NCBI GenBank assembly: GCA_951406725.2
Contig: OX597822.1
Span: 68,820,001 to 68,884,000, forward strand
DNA length: 64,000 nucleotides
Source of the DNA: Octopus vulgaris
Lineage: Eukaryota
Direction of reading: 5' to 3'
The notes under the pieces are model-generated. The model did not search any database. It saw only the letters and a program-made list of their open reading frames with translations, and was not told where the DNA came from. Shown one piece after another: positions 1 to 21,790 of this stretch. Within the stretch, counting starts at the first letter, position 1, and every line of letters starts with the position of its first letter. A program made the position numbers and the translations under genes.

Positions 1-217
1 TATGAGCGAAACACCTAAGCTCTACGTGGCTCCGGCAGAAGGTAATGGCGAACTTCTGCTGACCCTTTCACCACAACTTTCTCTCACTCATTCCTCCTGC
101 ATCTTGCAGCTCACCTGCGAGGACTGGCATCCCGTCCAGGTGGAGAACCTATACACCAAGGAAACCGGAAACCCGGCCCTCTGAGCCAGGCGTGGCTCAA
201 GAAGGAACAAACAACAA
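1..217 (+). mobile_element. SINE family C, 3' part (truncated by window edge)
   Basis: Core 'gagcgaaacacctaagctc...ctttcaccacaactttctctcactc' matches the minus-strand copy at 44257-44640. Tail 'gaaaccgg...ggccc..tgagcc' is shared with 26525-26745. Ends in (ACAA)n. Confidence 0.75.
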
Positions 218-232
218 TATATGTATAGTATA

Positions 233-403
233 GGCGTAGGAGTGGCTGTGTGGTAAGTAGCTTGCTTACCAACCACATGGTTCCATGTTCAGTCCCACTG
301 CATGGCACATTGGGCAAGTGTCTTTTACTATAGCCTCGGGCCGACCAAAGCCTTGTGAGTGGATTTGGTAGACGGAAACTGATAGAAGCCTGTCATATAT
401 ATG

Positions 404-459
<56 letters not shown>

Positions 460-628
460 TGTCTTTGTTTGTCCCCCCAACATCACTTGACAACCGAAGC
501 TGGTGTGTTTACGTCCCCGTAACTTAGCGGTTCGGCAAAAGAGACCGATACAATAAGTATACAATTTGCTCAACTAAAGGCGGTGCTCCAGCATGACCAC
601 AGTCAAATGACTGAATCAAGTAAAAAAG
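233..628 (+). mobile_element. SINE family A (tRNA-derived head, CORE-like segment, internal TA/TG microsatellite)
   Basis: A-box-like GGCTGTGTGG, B-box-like GTTCAGTCCC, CORE-like 'ttgggcaagtg', tail 'ggtgctccagcatg...cagtcaaatgactga'. About 25 related copies in the window. Confidence 0.9.
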
Positions 629-849
629 TATTCATAGGATTTGAACTCAGAATGTAAAGCAACATAAATGAATCTAACAAAGCATGTTATCCACTTCTCT
701 AACAATTCTGTCATCCACCACATTCTTAAAATTAAAATAACATCAACTAAAATTTGTTAGTAAAAATAATTTTTCATAATAGACAGTAAAGAAGGTTGGC
801 ATGTCCAGACAGCTTGAAGCCAAGACTCGTTTTTAATCTCTAATAACTG

Positions 850-1600
850 TAGTTACATGCATATATGATGAGACAGCTGCAACAAATTATGAATATTACT
901 CTGTTTGACAAGATCAGGAATGAAGAGATCCTTTGGTATGCTGGTCTGCTTCCTTTGATGGAAATCCTTGTTGAGAGAAATTTATGTTGGTTGGGACACC
1001 TACACAGAATAGACAACAGCAGGTTCCGCAGACAACTCATTTACTCTCAACTACGCAAAGGGAAAAGAAACCGTGGAAGACCTAGAGGGAGGTTCAAAGA
1101 TACTCTCTCTTTACTCTCTTACTTGTTTCAGTCATTTGACTGCGGCCATGCTGGAGCACCGCCTTTAATCGAGCAACTCGACCCCAGGACTTATTCTTTT
1201 GTAAGCCCAGTACTTATTCTATCGGTCTCTTTTGCCGAACCACTAAGTAACGGGGACATAAACACACCAGCATCAGTTGTAAAGCAATGCTAGGGGGACA
1301 AACACAGACACACAAACACATACATGCATATATATATATACATATATACGATGGGCTTCTTTCAGTTTCCATCTACCAAATCCGCTCACAAGGCTTTGGT
1401 CGGGCCGAGGCTATAGTAGAAGACACTTGCCCAAGGTGCCACGCAGTGGGAGTGAACCCAAAACATGCACCTCCTGCTAAAAGAAATATGAAGTGGAAAG
1501 GAAATGATCATAATAAGTGGCAAACTAAAGCAAAAAACCAACCAGTATGGAGAAAGCTTATCAAGTCACGCCAAAGCCATTAACAGATGACTTACAACAG
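850..1600 (+). pseudogene. RTE-clade LINE ORF C-terminal fragment, split by a SINE A insertion
   Basis: Translation ...RNEEIL...WLGHLHRIDNSR...GKRNRGRPRGRFKDT resumes after the SINE as AKRNMKWK...WRKLI. This is a typical RTE C-terminus. Confidence 0.8.
1101..1460 (-). mobile_element. SINE family A
   Basis: Reverse complement of the 233-628 family; interrupts the RTE fragment. Confidence 0.9.
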
Positions 1601-1989
1601 ATAATAACTGGAGTGAAATAAGTCCGATAAGAGTCATTTTACTACAGTTATACAACTAAAGCACCAGGGAAAGCATGAACATCACACTTTCCATCTCTGT
1701 ATATTCTCTTAAAATTACAAGAGCCTTAAAATATACACAGTAAAAGACTGAGGCAGAGTTTGATGGCATCAAAAGTCCACTTTCGATAATTTTTTAACTT
1801 GTCAGATGTTAAACAAACTCTATGTTCGTGTGTATGTGTGTTTTCCATGGGGGAAATGGAAAATGGAGTTAGCAAGATTCTAGATGACATCAGGTAGCCT
1901 AAACGGAGAAAGTGCTTTAATCGGCATACTACTAACCATATATAAAAGGTCCAAATAATTACTTGTGTGTGTGTGTGTGTCTGGATGTG

Positions 1990-2370
1990 TCGCTGCGTGG
2001 CAAGCAGCTTGCTTACCAACCACATGGTTCCAGGTTCAGTCCCACTTCATGGCACCTTGGGCAAGTGTCTTCTACTGTGGCCTTGGGCCAACCAAAGCCT
2101 TGTGAGTGGATTTGGTAGACGGAAACTGAAAGAAGCCTGTCATATACACATACATATTTATGTATATGTTTGTGTGTCTGTGTTTGTCCCTCCACCATCA
2201 CTTGACAACTGATGTTGGTGTTTGTGCCCCCATAACTTAGAGGTTCGGCAAAAGAAACCAACAGGATAAGTACTTGGGTTACAAAGAATAAGTCCTGGGG
2301 TCGATTTGTTCCACTAAAGGCAATACTCCAGCATGGTCACAGTCAAATGACTGAAACAAATAAAAGAATA
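1990..2370 (+). mobile_element. SINE family A
   Basis: Near full-length match to the family. Confidence 0.9.
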
Positions 2371-2408
2371 TAAACATATGTACAATACTGCACACTTCAA
2401 TTTATATA

Positions 2409-2439
<31 letters not shown>

Positions 2440-2647
2440 ACACACATGCATGTGGAAGAGGTAGCTATATGTGTGTGTGTGTGTGTGTGTGTAAGGGGCG
2501 CCACATCTATCAACTGCTCTCTTAGCCAAAGACTATAGAAAAAGATACTTGCCCTGGGTGTCACACAATAGGAGGGTAACTACAAACTTGTAGTTACAAA
2601 GCAAGCTCCATATCAACAGAGCCATAATATATAACATATATTGGTTT

Positions 2648-2685
<38 letters not shown>

Positions 2686-2686
<1 letters not shown>

Positions 2687-3672
2687 CTAGTATGCTCCAC
2701 TGGATGTGCAGTGTCAGTGTGCATACACGACAGAGTGTAAGCACTGTGAGAGAAAAGTTGGACATAAGAAGCATCAAATGTGGTGTGCAAGAGAGACGAT
2801 TGCACTGGTATGATCATGTGTTGCGTATGGATGAGGACAGCTGTGTGAAAAAGTGTCACACCCTAGCAGTAGAGGGAGCCTGTGGAGAGGTAGACCCAGG
2901 AAGACCTGGGATGAGGTGATGAAGCACGACCTTTGAATGCTGGGCCTCACGGAGGCGATGACAAGTGACTGAGACCCTTGGAGATATTCTGTGCTTGAGA
3001 AGACACAGCAAGCCAAGTGAGACCATAAGCGTGGCTTATACCAGTGCAGCATAACAGGCCCATTTAAGAGTACCCTTCAATCATTGGACAATAAACTGTG
3101 TTTGCAAAGATCTATTGAGTCAAGTGAAGTCATTGTCATGGCCAATGACAGTACCGCCTGATTGGCACCCATGCCAGTGACACGTAAAAAGCACTATTCG
3201 AGCATGGTCGAAGCCAGTGCTGCCTGATTGGTCCCATGCCGGTGGCACGTAAAAAGCACTATTTGAGTGTGATCATTGCCAGTGCCACCTCAATGGCTCC
3301 CAGTGGCACATAAAAAACACCATTCAAGCGTGGTCAATGCCATGGCAGTGGCACATAAAAAAGCACCATTTAAGCATAGTCACTGCCAGTGCTGCCTGAC
3401 TGGTTCCCATGCTGGTGGCACATAAAAAGCACCATTCAAGCGTGGTCAATGCCAGTACTGCCTTATTGACCCTCGTGCCAGTGACATGTAAAAAGTACCC
3501 ACTACACTCTTGGAGTGGTTGGCGTTAGGAACGGCATCCAGCTGTAGAAACTTTGCAAAATCAGATTAGAGCCTGGTGCAGCCTTCTGGCTTGCCAGCCT
3601 GTGGTCAAACCGTCCAACCCATGCCAGCATGAAAGGCGGATGTTAACTGACGATGATGATGATGATGATGAT
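2686..3672 (+). mobile_element. 5'-truncated RTE LINE: ORF end, 3'UTR minisatellite and (GAT)n tail
   Basis: ASMLHWMCSVS...QERRLHWYDHVLRMDE...GRPRKTW (frameshifted). Then ~55-60 bp repeats containing 'gtggcacgtaaaaagcacc', then 'acccatgccagcatg...gatgatgat'. Confidence 0.85.
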
Positions 3673-3908
3673 ATATACACAATATACAGAGTGGCCAAAA
3701 AGTAGGTTTGCAGTTGTCACATAGGCACTTGAAATTCCTTTTAAAACATTTCATTACATTTAAATTTCTATCTTACAAATAACTAAATTAGCGTAGAATA
3801 ATGGTTTCATATTTTTATATAATTAAGATATAAACTGTTAATATATGAATGCGAAAGTAGCACACACACACACATCTACATATAGATACGTGTGAGTGTA
3901 TGTGTATG

Positions 3909-3945
<37 letters not shown>

Positions 3946-4083
3946 TAAGCAATAGTATTACTTAGTATTACTTAAATTTTCCTCGAATGAGGCTTTTACA
4001 TGCCGAAGACTACTTGGTGTTATTGATAATTATTCCAACCCATGCTAGCATGGAGAACGGACGTTAAACGACGATGATGATGA

Positions 4084-4123
<40 letters not shown>

Positions 4124-4964
4124 CAAATAAGTGATTTGGTGCCTCAACTTAAGTACCTAATTCAACTGAATCTTAATTATATATATATATATAGATAGAT
4201 ATAGATATATAGATATAGATATATACACACACACACACATATGCATAAACATATCTAAATACACACACATAATATATACATAACATACATGCACACACAC
4301 ACACACACACACACTGACCTTTATCACCCAACAAAAGATAGTTAGATCACTATCTCACCAGCACACCTATTTACAGAAACAAGAATCACTACTGGCACAA
4401 TAGTAAAAACCCCACATAGTTTCGTCCTTCTCGTTCAACTGACTCTCAGAAGAATCCAGCTACACCCCTTCCTCACTCTTCTCTAATGAAAGGTTTCTTT
4501 CATTCCAAACAAAATATTCTTGTCTAAAGCAAACTGTCACCAAATTAATTCAAGCTCTGTACAGCCACTGCAACATTAAAATAACTTACTATGCCATGTT
4601 TGGCAAACCAGACAGTCAAACCAAACACATAAAAACTATAATAACAATTAGAAGACAACAGAATTGTTACAAGAGACATACAACAAGCAACAACAACTTA
4701 CCACATTACCACATTCAAATAACCACTCCTGATCACTCACCAAATACATCGCAACTTAAATTCCTCATTTCTCTTTCCTGACACTTACCAATCCCTAGAA
4801 ACATAATCTGCCACTTGCTGCCAGCACCAATATTTTGTAACTCCTCCTTTTTTTAATTTCAACTCTAAACTTCATGACATCAGACATCAACTACCAAATA
4901 CCATGACAACAATATGCTTTTGTTTCACATCTTCACAAACGAGACGTGTTAAACAGAAACAGGA

Positions 4965-5345
4965 TCGTCATCATCATTATCATGATCATGATCATCATCG
5001 TCGTTTAACGTCCACTTTCCATGCTAGCTTGGATTGGACGATTTGACTGAAGACTGGCAAACCAGATGGCTACACCAGACTCCAATCTGATCTGGTAGAG
5101 TTTCTACAGCTGGATGCCCTTCCTAACGCCAACCACTCCGAGAGTGTAGTGGGTGCTTTTACGTGCCACCGGCACAATCAGGCAGTACTGGCAACAGCCA
5201 CGCACAAATAGTGTTTTTTATGTGCCACCTGCACAGGAGCCAGTCCAGCAGCATTGGCAACGACCTCACTCGAATGTTTTTTCATATGCCACCAGCACAA
5301 GTGCCAGTAAGGCTCTTAGCACTCCACTAGCACGGATGCCAGTCA
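4965..5345 (-). mobile_element. RTE 3'UTR/tail copy
   Basis: Reverse complement of the 3500-3672 tail, including the (ATC)n end. Confidence 0.8.
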
Positions 5346-5419
5346 TCGAATTGTGGAAAAAGGAAACACAATGTCATAATATGCACAACAAAAACATACA
5401 ACAACAACTTGCCGACTAA

Positions 5420-5850
5420 GAGTAGGTGTGTGGTAAGAAGCTTGCTTCCCAACCACATGGTTCTGGGTTCCATCACAATGTGTGGCACCTTGGGCAAGTG
5501 TCTTCTACTATAGCCTGGAGTTGACCAAAGCCTTGTGAATGTATTTGGTACTGAAAGAAGCCTGTTGTATATATGTATATATATGTGTGTGTCTGTGTGT
5601 GTGTGTGTGTGTGTGCATGTGTGTGTGCGTATGTGTGCATGTGTGTTTGAGGTACTTGGCGACCTTACCAGAGCTGGCATTGCATAAAAAGCACCCAGTA
5701 CACTGTTAAATGATTGACACTAGGAAGTGCATCCAACTGTAGAAACCATGCCAAAGCAGATATAGAATCTGGTGGAGTCCTCTGGCTCGTCTGTTCTTGA
5801 GAAACTGTCCGACCCATGCCAACAAGGAAGAAAAAAGTACCTTAAATGAT
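5420..5850 (+). mobile_element. SINE A head + (TG)n + RTE-type tail
   Basis: Family A head at 5420-5570, then 'aaaagcacccagtacact...catccaactgtagaaacc...gacccatgcc'. Confidence 0.65.
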
Positions 5851-6534
5851 GTATCTGCATTTGTGTGTACTCTTGTCTTGTTGTAAATGAGCATCACAGT
5901 TAAACAAGCAATGTTATTTTTGTTTCTAGTCTTTAACAAAAAAAAACATGTCTGGCAAGAAGAAAATGTTACCTTGCTTGGAAACCAGTGAGGAAACCAA
6001 TGAAGATTGGTGATAAGAAGGGGATCTGGCCTTAGAATAATGTATCTCAACAAACTTCATCTGACCCATGAAAGCATGAAAAATTGGTCATTAATTGATG
6101 AAGATTATGATAAAGGAACAGAACTAAACCACTGAAGACCATTAACATAAAGCAATGGCTTCTTCATGCAAACTAACTTTTAAATATTAACATATCCTGA
6201 TCTCATAATCAATTGAGTTTTACGACTGAGTTTTTTCTAAGACTAATCTCCATGCTCAGTTGATAAAATTTAACCTTTTGCCTAACTAGAGATTGTAACT
6301 GTTTGGTTTCCATACAATGGTTTTCCTAACACAGTAAAAGAGTTTATACATTAGATGTGGGAGTCTGTCAGCTTGCCAAAAACACAGTAAAAATATCTTT
6401 ATCCTTTCATTACATTGCTACAACAGTATTGAATTTCTTTCAACACATTTTCTCCAAACTTGAACAAGGCCAAATTTCTCTTTATAAGGAATTTTCAATG
6501 TTGTAACAAACTAATTAACATGTTTTCCTTTTAC

Positions 6535-6602
6535 CTTTGGCCTTCTCCAGTTTAGAGACAGATTACATATTTTAAATTTCTTGTTGTGTTCTTCGATAGA
6601 TT
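6535..6602 (-). other. Weak candidate internal exon (68 nt; xSIEEHNKKFKICNLSLNWRRPK)
   Basis: Minus-strand 'ttctatttgtag|' acceptor and 'AAG|gtaaaa' donor; only one of three frames is open. No homology recognised. Confidence 0.2.
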
Positions 6603-7210
6603 CTACAAATAGAATCAGTTCAAGAGTGTTCATGGACACCAGTCCAAAATTCAATTAGAAAGACATCAAAGTCCAAATAGTAAAAAGTAATGGGTTTAAA
6701 ATAGAACTTCAGTAGTGCCAAATATCTACTTAATAATTAACATATTAAGATGAATTTCTGAAAATATATATAAACATATATTTTTAAAATCTGGTGTTTT
6801 TAACTGCTTACCAAGTCAATAAATACAAAGAATAATAATATTTCTATGGAGATTAATTTCCATTTACATATGAAGAAAATTAATTAGTGAAACGAGTTAG
6901 AGAATAATATCTGTGTTTATTTACACATTCAATTAAGAGCTTTTGTAAGTCTTCATGGATTAGGAGGATGGGAAAATGAAAATTACTGATTCCTGTAGCA
7001 TTATGCCAAAGACTGTTTACTTCAAAGGCATTGGTCATAGCTCCAACTAATTTCCAATCAGTTGTAGAGCACACTAAGTGAAGGAGGACAGGATAAACTA
7101 CCTGCATCAACTTGCTATAAAAGCAGGTAGTAATTTTACCTTGTTCTTAGTCTTAGTGCAAGCTTTGAAGAGTGCAGTTCGATTTTAACAGTTATTTTTT
7201 CAAAGCTATA

Positions 7211-8238
7211 ATTAAAGTGACAAAGGAGCATATTTGGTATATCTTGCTTTATAAATCCAATAAAGCAACAACGCAACAGAAAGTGCGAGGAATATTAACG
7301 CAATATATGGGGATCGGACAATAAGCGTAAGCCACTGTCAACACTGGTTCCAGAAATTCTGAGCTAGAAACTACAGCCTAGAAGATGAGCCTCACCCTGG
7401 AAGATCTGTAGAGCTCAACAAGGATGTCCTGCAAACACTGATGGAACAAAATCCTATCGTAACTGTTGAGGAACTAGCAGAGAAGCTTGGATTTCATCAT
7501 TCAACCATTCATCAACACCTGCATGCTATCAGAAAAGTCAGCAAATTGGGTCAATGGGTTCTTCAAAAATTTTCCAAGTCGAATTGCATGCAGAGAGTAA
7601 ATATGTGCTCTTCTTTGCTGTCATGTTTTACCAATGAACTTTTGTGAGACCAAATGGTGACTGGTGACAAGAAAGGGGTTCTCTATAAAAATGTCAAGCG
7701 CTAAAGACAGTGGGTAGAGACAGGAGAAACACTGACACCCCAGGCTAAAGAAGGTCTTTACCCACATAAGGTGTTGTTATGTGTTTGGTGGGATATAAAA
7801 GGCTTAGTACACTTTGAACTCTTAAACTCAAACCAAATGATAACAAGGGAGATCTACTACGAGCAGCTTGAGGGGCTTTAAGTCAGTGCTAGAAGAAAAA
7901 CAACCATCCTTGGTATCAAGATGAAAGGTGCTCTTCCATCAGAATAATGCTTGCCCACATCCAGCAAGGATGACATTCCAAAGGGAGGAGCAGTTTGAAT
8001 GGGAAACAATACCCCACCCACCATGTTCACCAGACATTGCCTCATCTGATTATCATTTATTCTGCAGTCTTCAAAATCATTTGGACGGAAAAAATATGAA
8101 TTCTGTAGATAAGGTTAGAACAGTACTGGAGGAGCATTTTTCATCATAACAAATTAATTTTGGAAGAGGGGCTTTGCAAGTCTACTATATAGATGGAAGA
8201 GCACTGTAGAAAATGAAGGAGAATATATTTTAGATTAA
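7211..8238 (+). pseudogene. Mariner (DD34D-type) transposase, inactivated by stops and frameshifts
   Basis: HWFQKF..NYSLEDEPHPGR (HTH region), MVTGD, KVLLCVWWD, FHQNNACPH, HPPCSPDIASSDYHLF (decayed YSPDLAPSD), RWK..VENEGEYILD*. Start codon appears mutated to ATT. Confidence 0.93.
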
Positions 8239-8257
8239 AAAGAACTTTGTTTATCTT

Positions 8258-8502
8258 GTGAGGTATACTTGCCATCTCAATATGGCTAACCACTAAGGGT
8301 GGGTGTTACTGTAGCTTGTAGCCTCAGGAGAACATCGTCTCCAGCTGGCTTTAGGCACACTTTCTGTGCCCTTATGGTATTTGCAAAGGGAGGTCAACTT
8401 TCCCTTGTCAACCTAAGTGATACGCCCGGACTGCAGTTTCTAGGTATTGACCTTTCCTCAGCGTACGACAATCACCGGTTTTCGTTCAGAGATTTATTAT
8501 TG
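8258..8502 (+). mobile_element. Short retroposed insertion inside the mariner 3' region
   Basis: Flanked by a perfect 12-bp duplication TTTGTTTATCTT (8246-8257, 8503-8514); ends in a (TTA)-like tail. Confidence 0.7.
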
Positions 8503-8579
8503 TTTGTTTATCTTAATTTTCAAAAATAAAAGAAATATAAAAAAACACATTATTTATGGGATGACCTAATATATATACA

Positions 8580-8900
8580 CCAGGTGTGGAGGTACCTTAG
8601 GTAAGTGTCTTCTACAATAGCTTCACACCAATCAAAGCCTTGTGAGGGGATTTGGTGGATAGAAACTGAAGATGCCTACCATATGTGTGTGTATTTGTTC
8701 TCCACTATTGCTTGATAATTGGTGTTGGTTTGTTTATATCTCCATTAGTTAGCAGTTCAGCAAGAGATACCAACAGGATAAGTAGCAAGCTTAAAAAAAC
8801 AATTAGTACTGAGATTGATCTGTTCAACAAAACTCTTCAAGGTCCATGCTCCAGTATAGCCACAGTTTAATGACTGAAACAAGTAAAAAACAGAAGATAA
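8580..8900 (+). mobile_element. SINE family A, degenerate
   Basis: Core and tail recognisable; CpGs lost. Confidence 0.75.
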
Positions 8901-9019
8901 ATATATATTATGAAAATGTCCTGTAATCTTTAATGGGTCATTGGATCACCAGTATACAACTCATCTTTATAGTTCTATATTTATGAGATGAGGAATTTTG
9001 TACATTATTTACATTATTT

Positions 9020-18866: not shown

Positions 18867-19783
18867 CTGGAAACATAAAGTAGAAATTATAATTTTCTTC
18901 TCTTAACTGTTGTCTACGCAGTAATTAGTTGTTCAACTGTTTTCTGTCTGCAACTGGTTTCAGGGATTATCCTGGTTTTGCTATTATCTCTGAATGCAAC
19001 TATATACTAAAGAGTCTATATCGCTTAATCTGTGCCAATTTCAGCTTTACAATATCCTTTTTTTTTTGTATTATTATTATCATTTTTTTTCTTTACTTAT
19101 TCAATTTATAATAAATAAAAAATCTATCCTTGAGATGAAAAGGAAAAAAAAAAAAATTAATGAATGAAAAAATAATAAAAAGAAAAAGAAAATCCTAAAA
19201 TCTATTGGAGGTTTTGTGGTTGCCGTAAATGAATCTGCATGTTTTCATAACATTTCAGTCTTGCTTCATTAGCAACGTTAGCAACAACAACAGCATCTCA
19301 GACACAGAATAGGATGAACAAATTAAAATCTCAACATCAACAAAGTATGATTTAATCCCATAGAACCACTTTAAAGTGCAACATCATGCATATACATGTG
19401 TGTGCATGTGTATATAGATATATAAACAAACATACATACATGTGTGTGTATATATATATTTTACTTGTTTCAGTCATTTGACTGCAGCCATGCTGGAGCA
19501 CCACCTTTAGTCAAACAAATCGCCTCCAGGACTTATTCTTTGTAAGCCTAGTATTTAATCTATAGGTCTATTTTGCCAAACTGCTAAGTTATGGGGGTGT
19601 AAAAACACCAACGGGGAGGGGGACACATATATATATATATATATATATAATATATTCGGTTAAGTAATTGAGATTCTAGTGAATTCTAAAGAATTCACAT
19701 GAATATGGTCCTTAACTAGGATGCAACCATACGACAAGTGGGGTGATTACAAATAGGAAAAAAGCAACAAGAATGGATTAAAA

Positions 19784-19870
19784 TCTCGGTACGATCGTTT
19801 CGTACGAGGACATCTTTAATAAGCTAAAAAAATGCAGTGAATACAGATGGCTCGTACTCGTCAGCCGAAA
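19784..19870 (-). ncRNA. Type I hammerhead ribozyme (predicted)
   Basis: Reverse-complement copy of 20055-20142 with an identical core. Confidence 0.75.
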
Positions 19871-20054
19871 AAACATCAGAGAATTCCCAACAACTTGATC
19901 AAATATTCAATATGAGCTATATGTAGACATGCATAAATTCTATAGGTTTAAAACCTTTCATCGGATCTCCATGAATCGAACTTTCTTCAATGCAGCTAAT
20001 CTTACAACCTCTTTTGTATCTACCCCTTTTGATGTTTGGGAATTCTCTGATGTT

Positions 20055-20142
20055 TTTCGGCTGACGAGTACGAGCCATCTGTATTCACTGCATTTTTTGT
20101 AGCTTATTAAAGATGTCCTCGTACGAAACGATCGTACCGAGA
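20055..20142 (+). ncRNA. Type I hammerhead ribozyme (predicted)
   Basis: Stem I tttcgg/ccgaga; core CUGACGA (20061-67); stem II GUACGAG/CUCGUAC extended by CAUCU/AGAUG; GAAA (20125-28); palindromic stem III ACGAUCGU; cleavage triplet GUA ending at 20136. Confidence 0.8.
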
Positions 20143-21064
20143 TTTTAATCCATTCTTGTTGCTTTTTTCCTATATATAATATATATACATATATAAATAT
20201 ATCAGACTTCTTTCAGTTTCCATACAGCAAATCAAGTCACAAGGTTTTGGCTAGCTAAAGGCTATAGTAGAAGACACCTAAGATACCATGTCATGGGACT
20301 GAACTGAGAATCATGTGGTTGGATAGCAAGCTTCCTACCATACAGCCATGCCTGCATATGTTTTCCACTAAACTCTGCTGAGTTTTCTTTATTTATCATT
20401 TTTTTTTTTTTTTTTGGAATTCTTTAAATTGTAAAGGTAATTTATGGACACCCTGTACATAAACACATACAGTCACACAAAGCAGAATAAACACTTTATG
20501 ATGGCTCTTTTCCTCACATTATCTCTTTATCTTTCACCAATATTTTAACAAGTCTTTACTGCATGGATGGAATCAATCCAAACATTTGGAATTGGCTCAC
20601 TTCCTTTCCAATTTTTTTTCTATTGCTGCATCGAGTAATGAAGAAGAATTATCAAAAACAGAGTGTCAAATGCAAGTATCTTTCAAACTGTTAAAAACTC
20701 TCACCATCTTTTTCTTTGATTCTTATAATTGATTGAAGCCATTAAATCTACATACCCAGCTGCTTTTAAGTTCACCATTCCAAGTAATATAAAAGTTCCA
20801 AGTAACATATGTTCCATTCATCATCATTATTATTTTTTCAAAGTCTACTTTTCCATGCAGATTTTCTATGGTTATACGTGTTACCAGCCGCAAACCCTTA
20901 TCTGTTTCTGTTTCTTCCAAGCAAGGTAATCTTTCCCCATAGCTAGACAGGATTTTGCAGAATATTGGAAACAAATGATGTTTACAACACTCACAGTATC
21001 AAGACAAGAAGCCACAAACATACTCACACATCTGTCTATCTATCTATCTATATATATATATATA

Positions 21065-21790
21065 TCATCATCATCATCATTATTATCATCATCATCATCG
21101 TTTAATGTCCGTCCATCTTCCATGCTGGCATGGGTTGGACGGTTCGACTGGGGTCTGGGAAACCAGGAGGCTGCACCAGGCCCCAACCTGATCTGGCAGT
21201 GTTTCTACAACTGGATGCCCTTCCTAACGCCAACCACTCTGATAGTGTAGTGGGTACTTTTTACGTGCCACCGGCACAGTGGCCAGAGGAGCTGGCATCA
21301 ACCATGATCAGATGGTGCTTTTTACATGCCACTGGCACGGAAGCCAGTCAAAGCCAGTCTACCGTTCACTCTGAGTGAGAGGCCCTTTGTCACCAGTAGG
21401 GTAGATACCAGTGCCGGAGGCATGTAAGAGAACCATCCGAACGTAGCCGTTGCCAGCGCCGCCTGACTGGCATCAGTGCCGGTGGCACATAAAAAGCACC
21501 ATCCGACCGTGGCCGTTGCCAGCTCCATCTGGTCCCCGTGCCGGTGGCACGTAAAAAGCACCATCCGATCGTGGCCGTTTGCCAGACTCGTCTGGCACCT
21601 GTGCCAGTGGCACGTAAAAAGCACCCACTACATTCACAGAGTGGTTGGCGTTAGGAAGGGCATCCAGCTGTAGAAACACTGCCAGATCAGACTGGGCCTG
21701 GTGCAGCCTTCTGGCTTCCCAGACCCCAGTTGAACCGTCCAACCCATGCCAGCATGGAAAGCGGACGTTAAACGATGATGATGATGATGA
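21065..21790. mobile_element. Two RTE 3'UTR/tail copies in inverted orientation
   Basis: 21065-21345 (minus, (ATC)n end) and 21410-21790 (plus, (GAT)n end). Confidence 0.85.

Follow-up and report, generated by a model that had tools for sequence, protein, structure and literature searches.

The insert, its target site and its hammerhead motifs

We found a 515-bp insert at positions 19656-20170 of the window (the whole 64,000-nucleotide stretch of Octopus vulgaris DNA analysed here), with two ~139-bp inverted arms and one type I hammerhead motif on each strand, as the initial annotation had described. Arm positions are numbered relative to the predicted hammerhead cut. The left arm (19656-19889, minus strand), placed by blastn to genomic copy L003, runs from -102 in the pLTR of the parent element described below to a long end at +154 and has a 21-bp deletion after 19725. 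The right arm (19890-20170, plus strand) is identical to L003 at 289 of 292 positions and runs from -248 in the 3' UTR/pLTR to a short end at +34. The inverted arms, aligned over 19746-19890 and 20036-20180, match in three collinear pieces (87 nt at 97% identity, 46 nt at 100% and 22 nt at 100%) with a 145-bp spacer between them, and the insert RNA is computed to fold into a single long hairpin (-280.8 kcal/mol, z -26.7). The CpG richness claimed for a ~520-bp insert was borne out in part: CpG observed/expected is 1.17 in the insert versus 0.58 in the window, but 8 of 123 window tiles are equally high, so the excess is modest. The copy starting at 19890 and two unrelated copies (L006 and L198) share the base at which they are 5'-truncated (reference 4530), which may be a hot spot for stopping.

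The insert is flanked by two halves of a SINE-like host repeat, the 3' half at 19461-19626 and the 5' half at 20203-20358 (both minus strand). In 11 further alignment rows of the window these halves are linked by a microsatellite of 74-260 bp, which bears out the proposed location in the (TA)n of such a repeat. The 5' half has a tRNA-like A- and B-box look, and the repeat may be a tRNA-type SINE. TATATATAATATAT is present at both ends of the insert, at 19642-19655 (the end of the (TA)n) and at 20171-20184, and what had been annotated as a possible target-site duplication (TSD) is a true one of 14 bp; that it is merely element-derived sequence was dismissed, since other loci also show mirrored flanks. 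The inner bases of the left copy match the element's own continuation as well (AATATATT), an overlap that may possibly reflect primer-template microhomology. Contigs from four sequencing runs over 19100-20700 were swamped by repeats and resolved the empty-site allele neither way, and a look-up across sequencing runs listed no RNA run with the sequence. Elsewhere in the window, short inverted repeats at 21253-21500 (34-37 nt, 85%) belong to another dispersed repeat, and an ORF fragment at 7363-7644 (plus strand) contains a helix-turn-helix (Pfam HTH_11, E 3e-6) and is perhaps a DNA-transposase remnant.

The plus-strand hammerhead motif (20055-20142), identified by descriptor scan and folding, comprises stem I at 20055-20060, CTGACGA at 20061-20067, a 57-nt stem II, GAA, ACGATCGT and A20136, after which the cut is predicted. 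Its minus-strand counterpart (19784-19870, core start 19864), identified by descriptor scan, has a 56-nt stem II and a predicted cut 3' of A19790. Both have a 6-bp stem I, a 7-bp stem II base and the palindromic ACGATCGT followed by A, and the scan found exactly two such motifs in the whole window, at 20061 (+) and 19864 (-). The Rfam search proposed in the initial annotation matched no hammerhead family in the insert region at E<=1 or E<=10; the long stem II likely breaks the Rfam hammerhead model. A short-loop hammerhead pattern gave 3 matches in the window versus 1.07 expected by chance and missed the motif of the insert. The arms had also been said to fold into complete hammerheads, which holds for the dimer model but not for the monomer, where bases of the core are paired to the GUA region. 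The homodimer opens the core through an 8-bp duplex (-60.4 versus -54.4 kcal/mol for two monomers), and from this modelling we predict that the ribozyme acts in dimeric form in the RNA of the parent element, not in the stub.

The two motifs of the stub lie on opposite strands, which precludes dimerisation within one transcript. In addition, the tails-out palindrome puts the sense ribozyme after its complement, and both geometry and fold indicate that it would likely be trapped in a 139-bp duplex. We found no convincing host exon in the 150 of 190 higher-complexity ORFs scanned (window 91-49960). With no such exon found there and the sense motif likely masked, the earlier suggestion of a self-cleavage site in a host transcript is unsupported, and we regard a role of the insert in host RNA control as extremely doubtful.

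A Penelope-like parent family

At 98-99% identity, the two arms correspond to the pLTR at the 3' end of an autonomous Penelope-like element (PLE). Copies linked to an ORF, for which the initial annotation had suggested looking, do exist in the genome: full copy L031 has the same 3' end behind an intact 1,072-aa ORF (P0001), and a second copy, L101, has a 1,071-aa ORF. The reverse transcriptase (RT) part of P0001 models at a pLDDT of 92.6, with telomerase RT as its top Foldseek match (TERT 3du5, E 6.6e-9), and the RT part of a sister family, likewise modelled, also has telomerase RT as best match. Pfam gave no match for P0001 and a weak RT match in 1 of 13 relatives, and a PDB sequence search with the ORF found nothing. 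The ORF contains RWR (RWK in L102), DKT, CNCRIKSKC (CxCX5C), CQLC (CxxC) and CIH (CxH), has a single Cys between the GIY and YIG boxes, and lacks CCHH. C-terminal IIY..YVG, R, E and N motifs align, and Pfam matches GIY-YIG weakly in two of the 13 relatives aligned (E 9e-4 at best). (TA)n adjoins nearly all terminal ends of the element copies, and pLTRs with the hammerhead, as partial tandems, direct or inverted, with a tail, are present in L031 and in sister-family L102, L103, L105, L106, L120 and L130.

Craig et al. (2021, PMC8557442) define the RW[K/R], DKT, CxCX5C, CxxC and CxH set without CCHH for the Hydra clade, a clade of C-terminal EN+ PLEs that includes Hydra-1_Obim and Penelope-13_HM. 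The octopus element shares with the clade, as described there, these motifs, the (TA)n targets and a type I hammerhead near the 3' end. It differs in size, having a ~4.7-kb unit, its 1,072-aa ORF and two Asn-rich inserts where Hydra-clade elements are generally <3 kb; in its stem II region, which is 56-57 nt long versus a 3-10-nt loop 2 on 3-7-bp stems in Hydra hammerheads; and in its tail (120 nt versus 30-40 bp). The Hydra-1_Obim family itself was dismissed as the parent, since its hammerhead as listed there and its N-terminus differ. On the basis of sequence, the insert is almost certainly a stub of a Hydra-type PLE. It is a 5'-truncated, inverted pLTR stub of a young family, and in itself an ordinary example.

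A core 20-mer has 419 exact copies in the octopus's own genome (2.8 Gb) versus 0 for the control; at least 108 alignments were listed, from 40 scored among 1,113 candidates. Sister families with ~85% and ~64% RT identity are abundant. In L031 (3457-6675), two Asn-rich inserts (P0001 residues ~490-640 and ~710-925) lie between the RT thumb and the linker; such inserts have family-specific lengths and do not interrupt the frame, the ORFs of three families measuring 1,072, ~955 and 836 aa. The 3' UTR of L031 contains an old ~165-bp internal duplication (reference ~4255-4410 and ~4490-4640, 72% identity) just upstream of the hammerhead. At the same locus, a compound insertion (104-8980) has an inverted arm that takes in ~0.9 kb past the element's short end, then the hammerhead and a long end, which suggests that the template extended by read-through and that copying jumped between templates.

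A pattern with a 30-60-nt stem II and a palindromic stem III, which required neither stem I pairing nor stem II base pairing, gave 21,095 matches genome-wide versus 148 in the control. Among 102 distinct motifs at fetched loci, stem I of at least 3 bp was present in 93 and a stem II base of at least 4 bp in 91. Stem I pairing of at least 3 bp was found in 10 of 10 groups versus 32 of 90 cross pairings, and its pairs switch type from group to group. The core is invariant in the alignment, the stem III palindrome is retained as ACGATCGT, ACAATTGT, ACATATGT and wobble forms, and in most groups the fold of the long stem II is better than that of shuffled sequences. As judged from the alignment, the long-stem-II hammerhead is kept across families with covarying stems, which is the conservation of core and stems among copies on which the initial annotation had made its reading depend. 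Like the minimal PLE hammerheads described by Cervera and de la Pena (2014, PMC4209133), the octopus motif has a 7-bp helix II, a short helix I and a palindromic 15.2-16.2/loop 3; unlike them, it has an 8-nt palindrome and a 40-nt structured extension of helix II. The value of these observations is carried by the long stem II and by the pairing rule described below, not by the 19656-20170 locus itself: one animal genome contains ~21,000 long-stem-II motifs, of a kind missed by Rfam in the window. More hammerhead families, with other palindromes (ACCGGT, ATGGCCAT and ACTGTACGGT), adjoin the studied elements at L106:2795, L110:9089 and L111:7102 (all minus strand).

Long and short ends of inverted pairs

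Terminal ends fall into two classes, at ~+34 and ~+154, and all 79 classifiable inverted pairs, from six families, have one short and one long end. In family A this holds for 37/37 tails-out pairs, a result with a probability of ~1e-11 if ends were independent 50:50 draws; these 37 were chosen as inverted pairs, with three loci omitted: L042, whose second arm stops inside the tail; L187, which duplicates L186; and L031, which is compound. The other five groups together give 42/42 (B 5/5, A2 1/1, C 24/24, F 10/10 and G 2/2), the end sites in group C lying at 22-46 versus 108-136. The pair at L121 (134/221) has no assignable class and stands outside the 79, and 12 of 40 fetched regions were dropped from the pair count, 11 because at least one arm could not be parsed and 1 because it is tails-in. 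Among the first 30 of 182 long-end matches, 1 was internal and 29 were terminal; 21 of the latter have an inverted partner, short in every case, and 8 are alone.

Several loci show other arrangements. L144 (G000:C1:19711700-19713500) is a family-C locus with two long ends tails-in, likely separate insertions into one microsatellite. The long ends of L046, L064, L186 and L196 have 1-2 extra non-TA bases before the target, possibly untemplated additions. At L051 (G000:C1:6243000-6252000), a long-end stub and its flanks are duplicated at 6,187-bp spacing with 99% identity; this arose by tandem duplication of the locality and is no pair of pLTRs.

Earlier publications already describe truncated pLTRs in inverted orientation, hammerhead pairs on opposite strands and targeting of (TA)n. 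PMC8557442 describes inverted truncated copies, often with a tail at one end only, and an Octopus Hydra family, and its entry for Penelope-13_HM gives a truncated copy that is inverted, with one hammerhead per strand; PMC4209133 reports truncated PLEs with dual hammerheads 100-700 bp apart on opposite strands. Added here to this literature are the fixed pairing of short and long ends, the common haplotype of the arms and the mostly 14-bp mirrored flanks. The papers covered, subscription papers aside, contained no statement that pairs strictly combine one long and one short end, that the stagger is 14 bp or that octopus hammerheads have the long stem II. The formation of PLE tandem and inverted repeats and tails is named as an open question in PMC8557442; the octopus family is a large natural data set on this process, and its intact young ORFs suit in vitro tests.

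Origin of the inverted pairs

Arms within a pair agree at 468/479 diagnostic sites (28 pairs), versus 74% agreement between loci. Interrupted mirrored flanks were found in 11/80 pairs, versus 1.1 expected from cross-locus pairing. By eye, 7/8 clearly informative family-A pairs mirror (over 14, 14, 14, 14, 14, 14-15 and 16 bp); L060 is informative and has no 14-bp mirror, L063 is ambiguous, and the remaining family-A flanks are pure TA. Some family-F flanks look shorter. At 3/35 loci the long arm breaks off at +23 to +26, adjoining the short site, as expected for twin priming of a single RNA; the arms of the other loci overlap, and there strand displacement or two templates would be needed. The 5' truncations do not accumulate at the predicted cut, with 0/69 arm starts within 5 nt of it and 66 upstream of it, and the 5' pLTRs of ORF-bearing copies extend hundreds of bases upstream of it. 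These arm starts and 5' pLTRs indicate that the template was likely uncut or re-ligated and of more than unit length.

As both element 3' ends face out and the target is duplicated, we infer a staggered cut whose 3' overhangs each primed a cDNA. We consider it probable (roughly 0.75), as judged from sequence, that priming on two strands at two fixed RNA sites made the insert in one event. The element's enzyme would cut (TA)n with a stagger of ~14 nt, leaving 3' overhangs; both 3' ends would prime reverse transcription at different fixed sites of an element RNA that was uncut or re-ligated and exceeded unit length; and the two truncated cDNAs would meet head to head, joining at short microhomology. 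The twin ribozymes of the stub would then be a by-product of inverted copying. What was observed, and forms the base of this explanation, is the identity to ORF copies, the +34 and +154 ends, their occurrence as one each per pair, the haplotype, the 14-bp mirrors and the read-through of the hammerhead site. Points that weigh against it are L060, the shorter family-F flanks, the 8/29 lone long ends, the weak or missing Pfam matches of the ORF, the strand displacement that the mostly overlapping arms would require on one RNA and the equal use of start sites by both strands in the Anolis element described below, and gene conversion could be an alternative source of the within-pair identity.

Related behaviour has been described in two other PLEs. 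For Anolis Poseidon PAc, Frangieh et al. (2024, PMC11167929) report that both strands are cut and extended in vitro and that reverse transcription starts at two internal sites bounding the tail, with no strand difference in start-site use. The octopus element resembles PAc in its two internal RT starts downstream of the hammerhead, in ribozyme-site read-through and in AT-rich targets; it belongs to another clade, its start sites lie upstream of the ORF at a distance of 120 nt from each other, and PAc showed no pairing of site and strand. The Adineta vaga Penelope, as described by Arkhipova et al. (2013, PMC3846280), has inverted pLTRs, an optional 31-bp tail, an 8-10-bp TSD and Asn-rich ORF inserts. 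Head-to-head pLTRs, a tail on one of them, a TSD around the unit and the Asn-rich inserts are thus common to both, whereas in the octopus each pair that could be parsed has a single tailed arm and TSD lengths cluster at 14 bp. Tentatively, and at well short of even odds, the head-to-head form may be the normal product of a two-headed complex, in which a dimeric RT-endonuclease would make a 14-nt staggered double-strand cut in (TA)n, its two RT sites being kept at start points that must differ (+34 and +154), on one RNA or two palindrome-paired RNAs, with the long stem II positioning the protein. If true, a single rule would account for pLTR inversion, tail and TSD, and it could be measured on genomic copies in their thousands.

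Could the palindrome instead have come from the same parent element by fold-back or self-priming, with either the first cDNA or an antisense strand as template? Many inversion junctions have short overlaps and 8/34 pairs have arm starts within 20 nt of each other, both in keeping with this, and self-priming is what PMC3846280 proposes for head-to-head rotifer PLE copies. However, fold-back of a long-primed cDNA would nest the short arm inside the long one, whereas the short arm reaches further 5' in 12/34 pairs (the long arm in 14, with 8 equal), and the window pair also breaks nesting (-248 for the short arm versus -102 for the long); a short-primed cDNA would provide no source for the 120-nt tail. 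We consider fold-back unlikely. That two independent insertions entered one (TA)n, or that symmetric pairs were later lost, seems to us scarcely credible, even though elements do nest in each other's microsatellites (L031, L107 and L052) and the tails-in long/long pair L144 exists: no (TA)n lies between the arms, the arms have a common haplotype, mirrored flanks surround the whole unit, and long/short pairs are as palindromic as the symmetric pairs would be.

The two-primer reading also differs from one in which the insert is a self-standing unit, be it a non-autonomous retrozyme, a MITE-like element bounded by terminal inverted repeats or an RNA switch adopted by the host. Hammerhead motifs intact on both strands would fit a retrozyme or switch, but the insert is not tandem, is 98-99% like neutral family copies and carries a 21-bp deletion, the ORFs scanned yielded no host exon, and its two arm lengths are unmatched at any second locus among 35 mapped family-A pair loci; we judge such a unit very improbable. 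Retrozymes are tandem head-to-tail units with a hammerhead, according to PMC7229834 and bioRxiv 10.64898/2026.07.22.740005. The insert is like the animal non-LTR retrozymes in its type I hammerhead and weak palindromic helix III, and unlike them in that it is inverted, occurs singly and belongs to a coding element; a retrozyme at 19656-20170 was ruled out on these grounds and by collinearity with the 3' end of the coding PLE. The initial annotation's proposal of a young PLE or retrozyme-type family is thus upheld as to a PLE with dimer-type hammerheads, while two end sites and variable arm lengths speak against a retrozyme or fixed unit. A tandem hammerhead array of 534-bp units, which would favour a retrozyme origin, does occur elsewhere in the genome, at L127:1515-3394 (G000:C1:5011014-5012893), where head-to-tail units, 100% identical and each with a long-stem-II hammerhead, have (TA)n-like flanks; this array may be retrozyme-like or a multimeric pLTR insertion.
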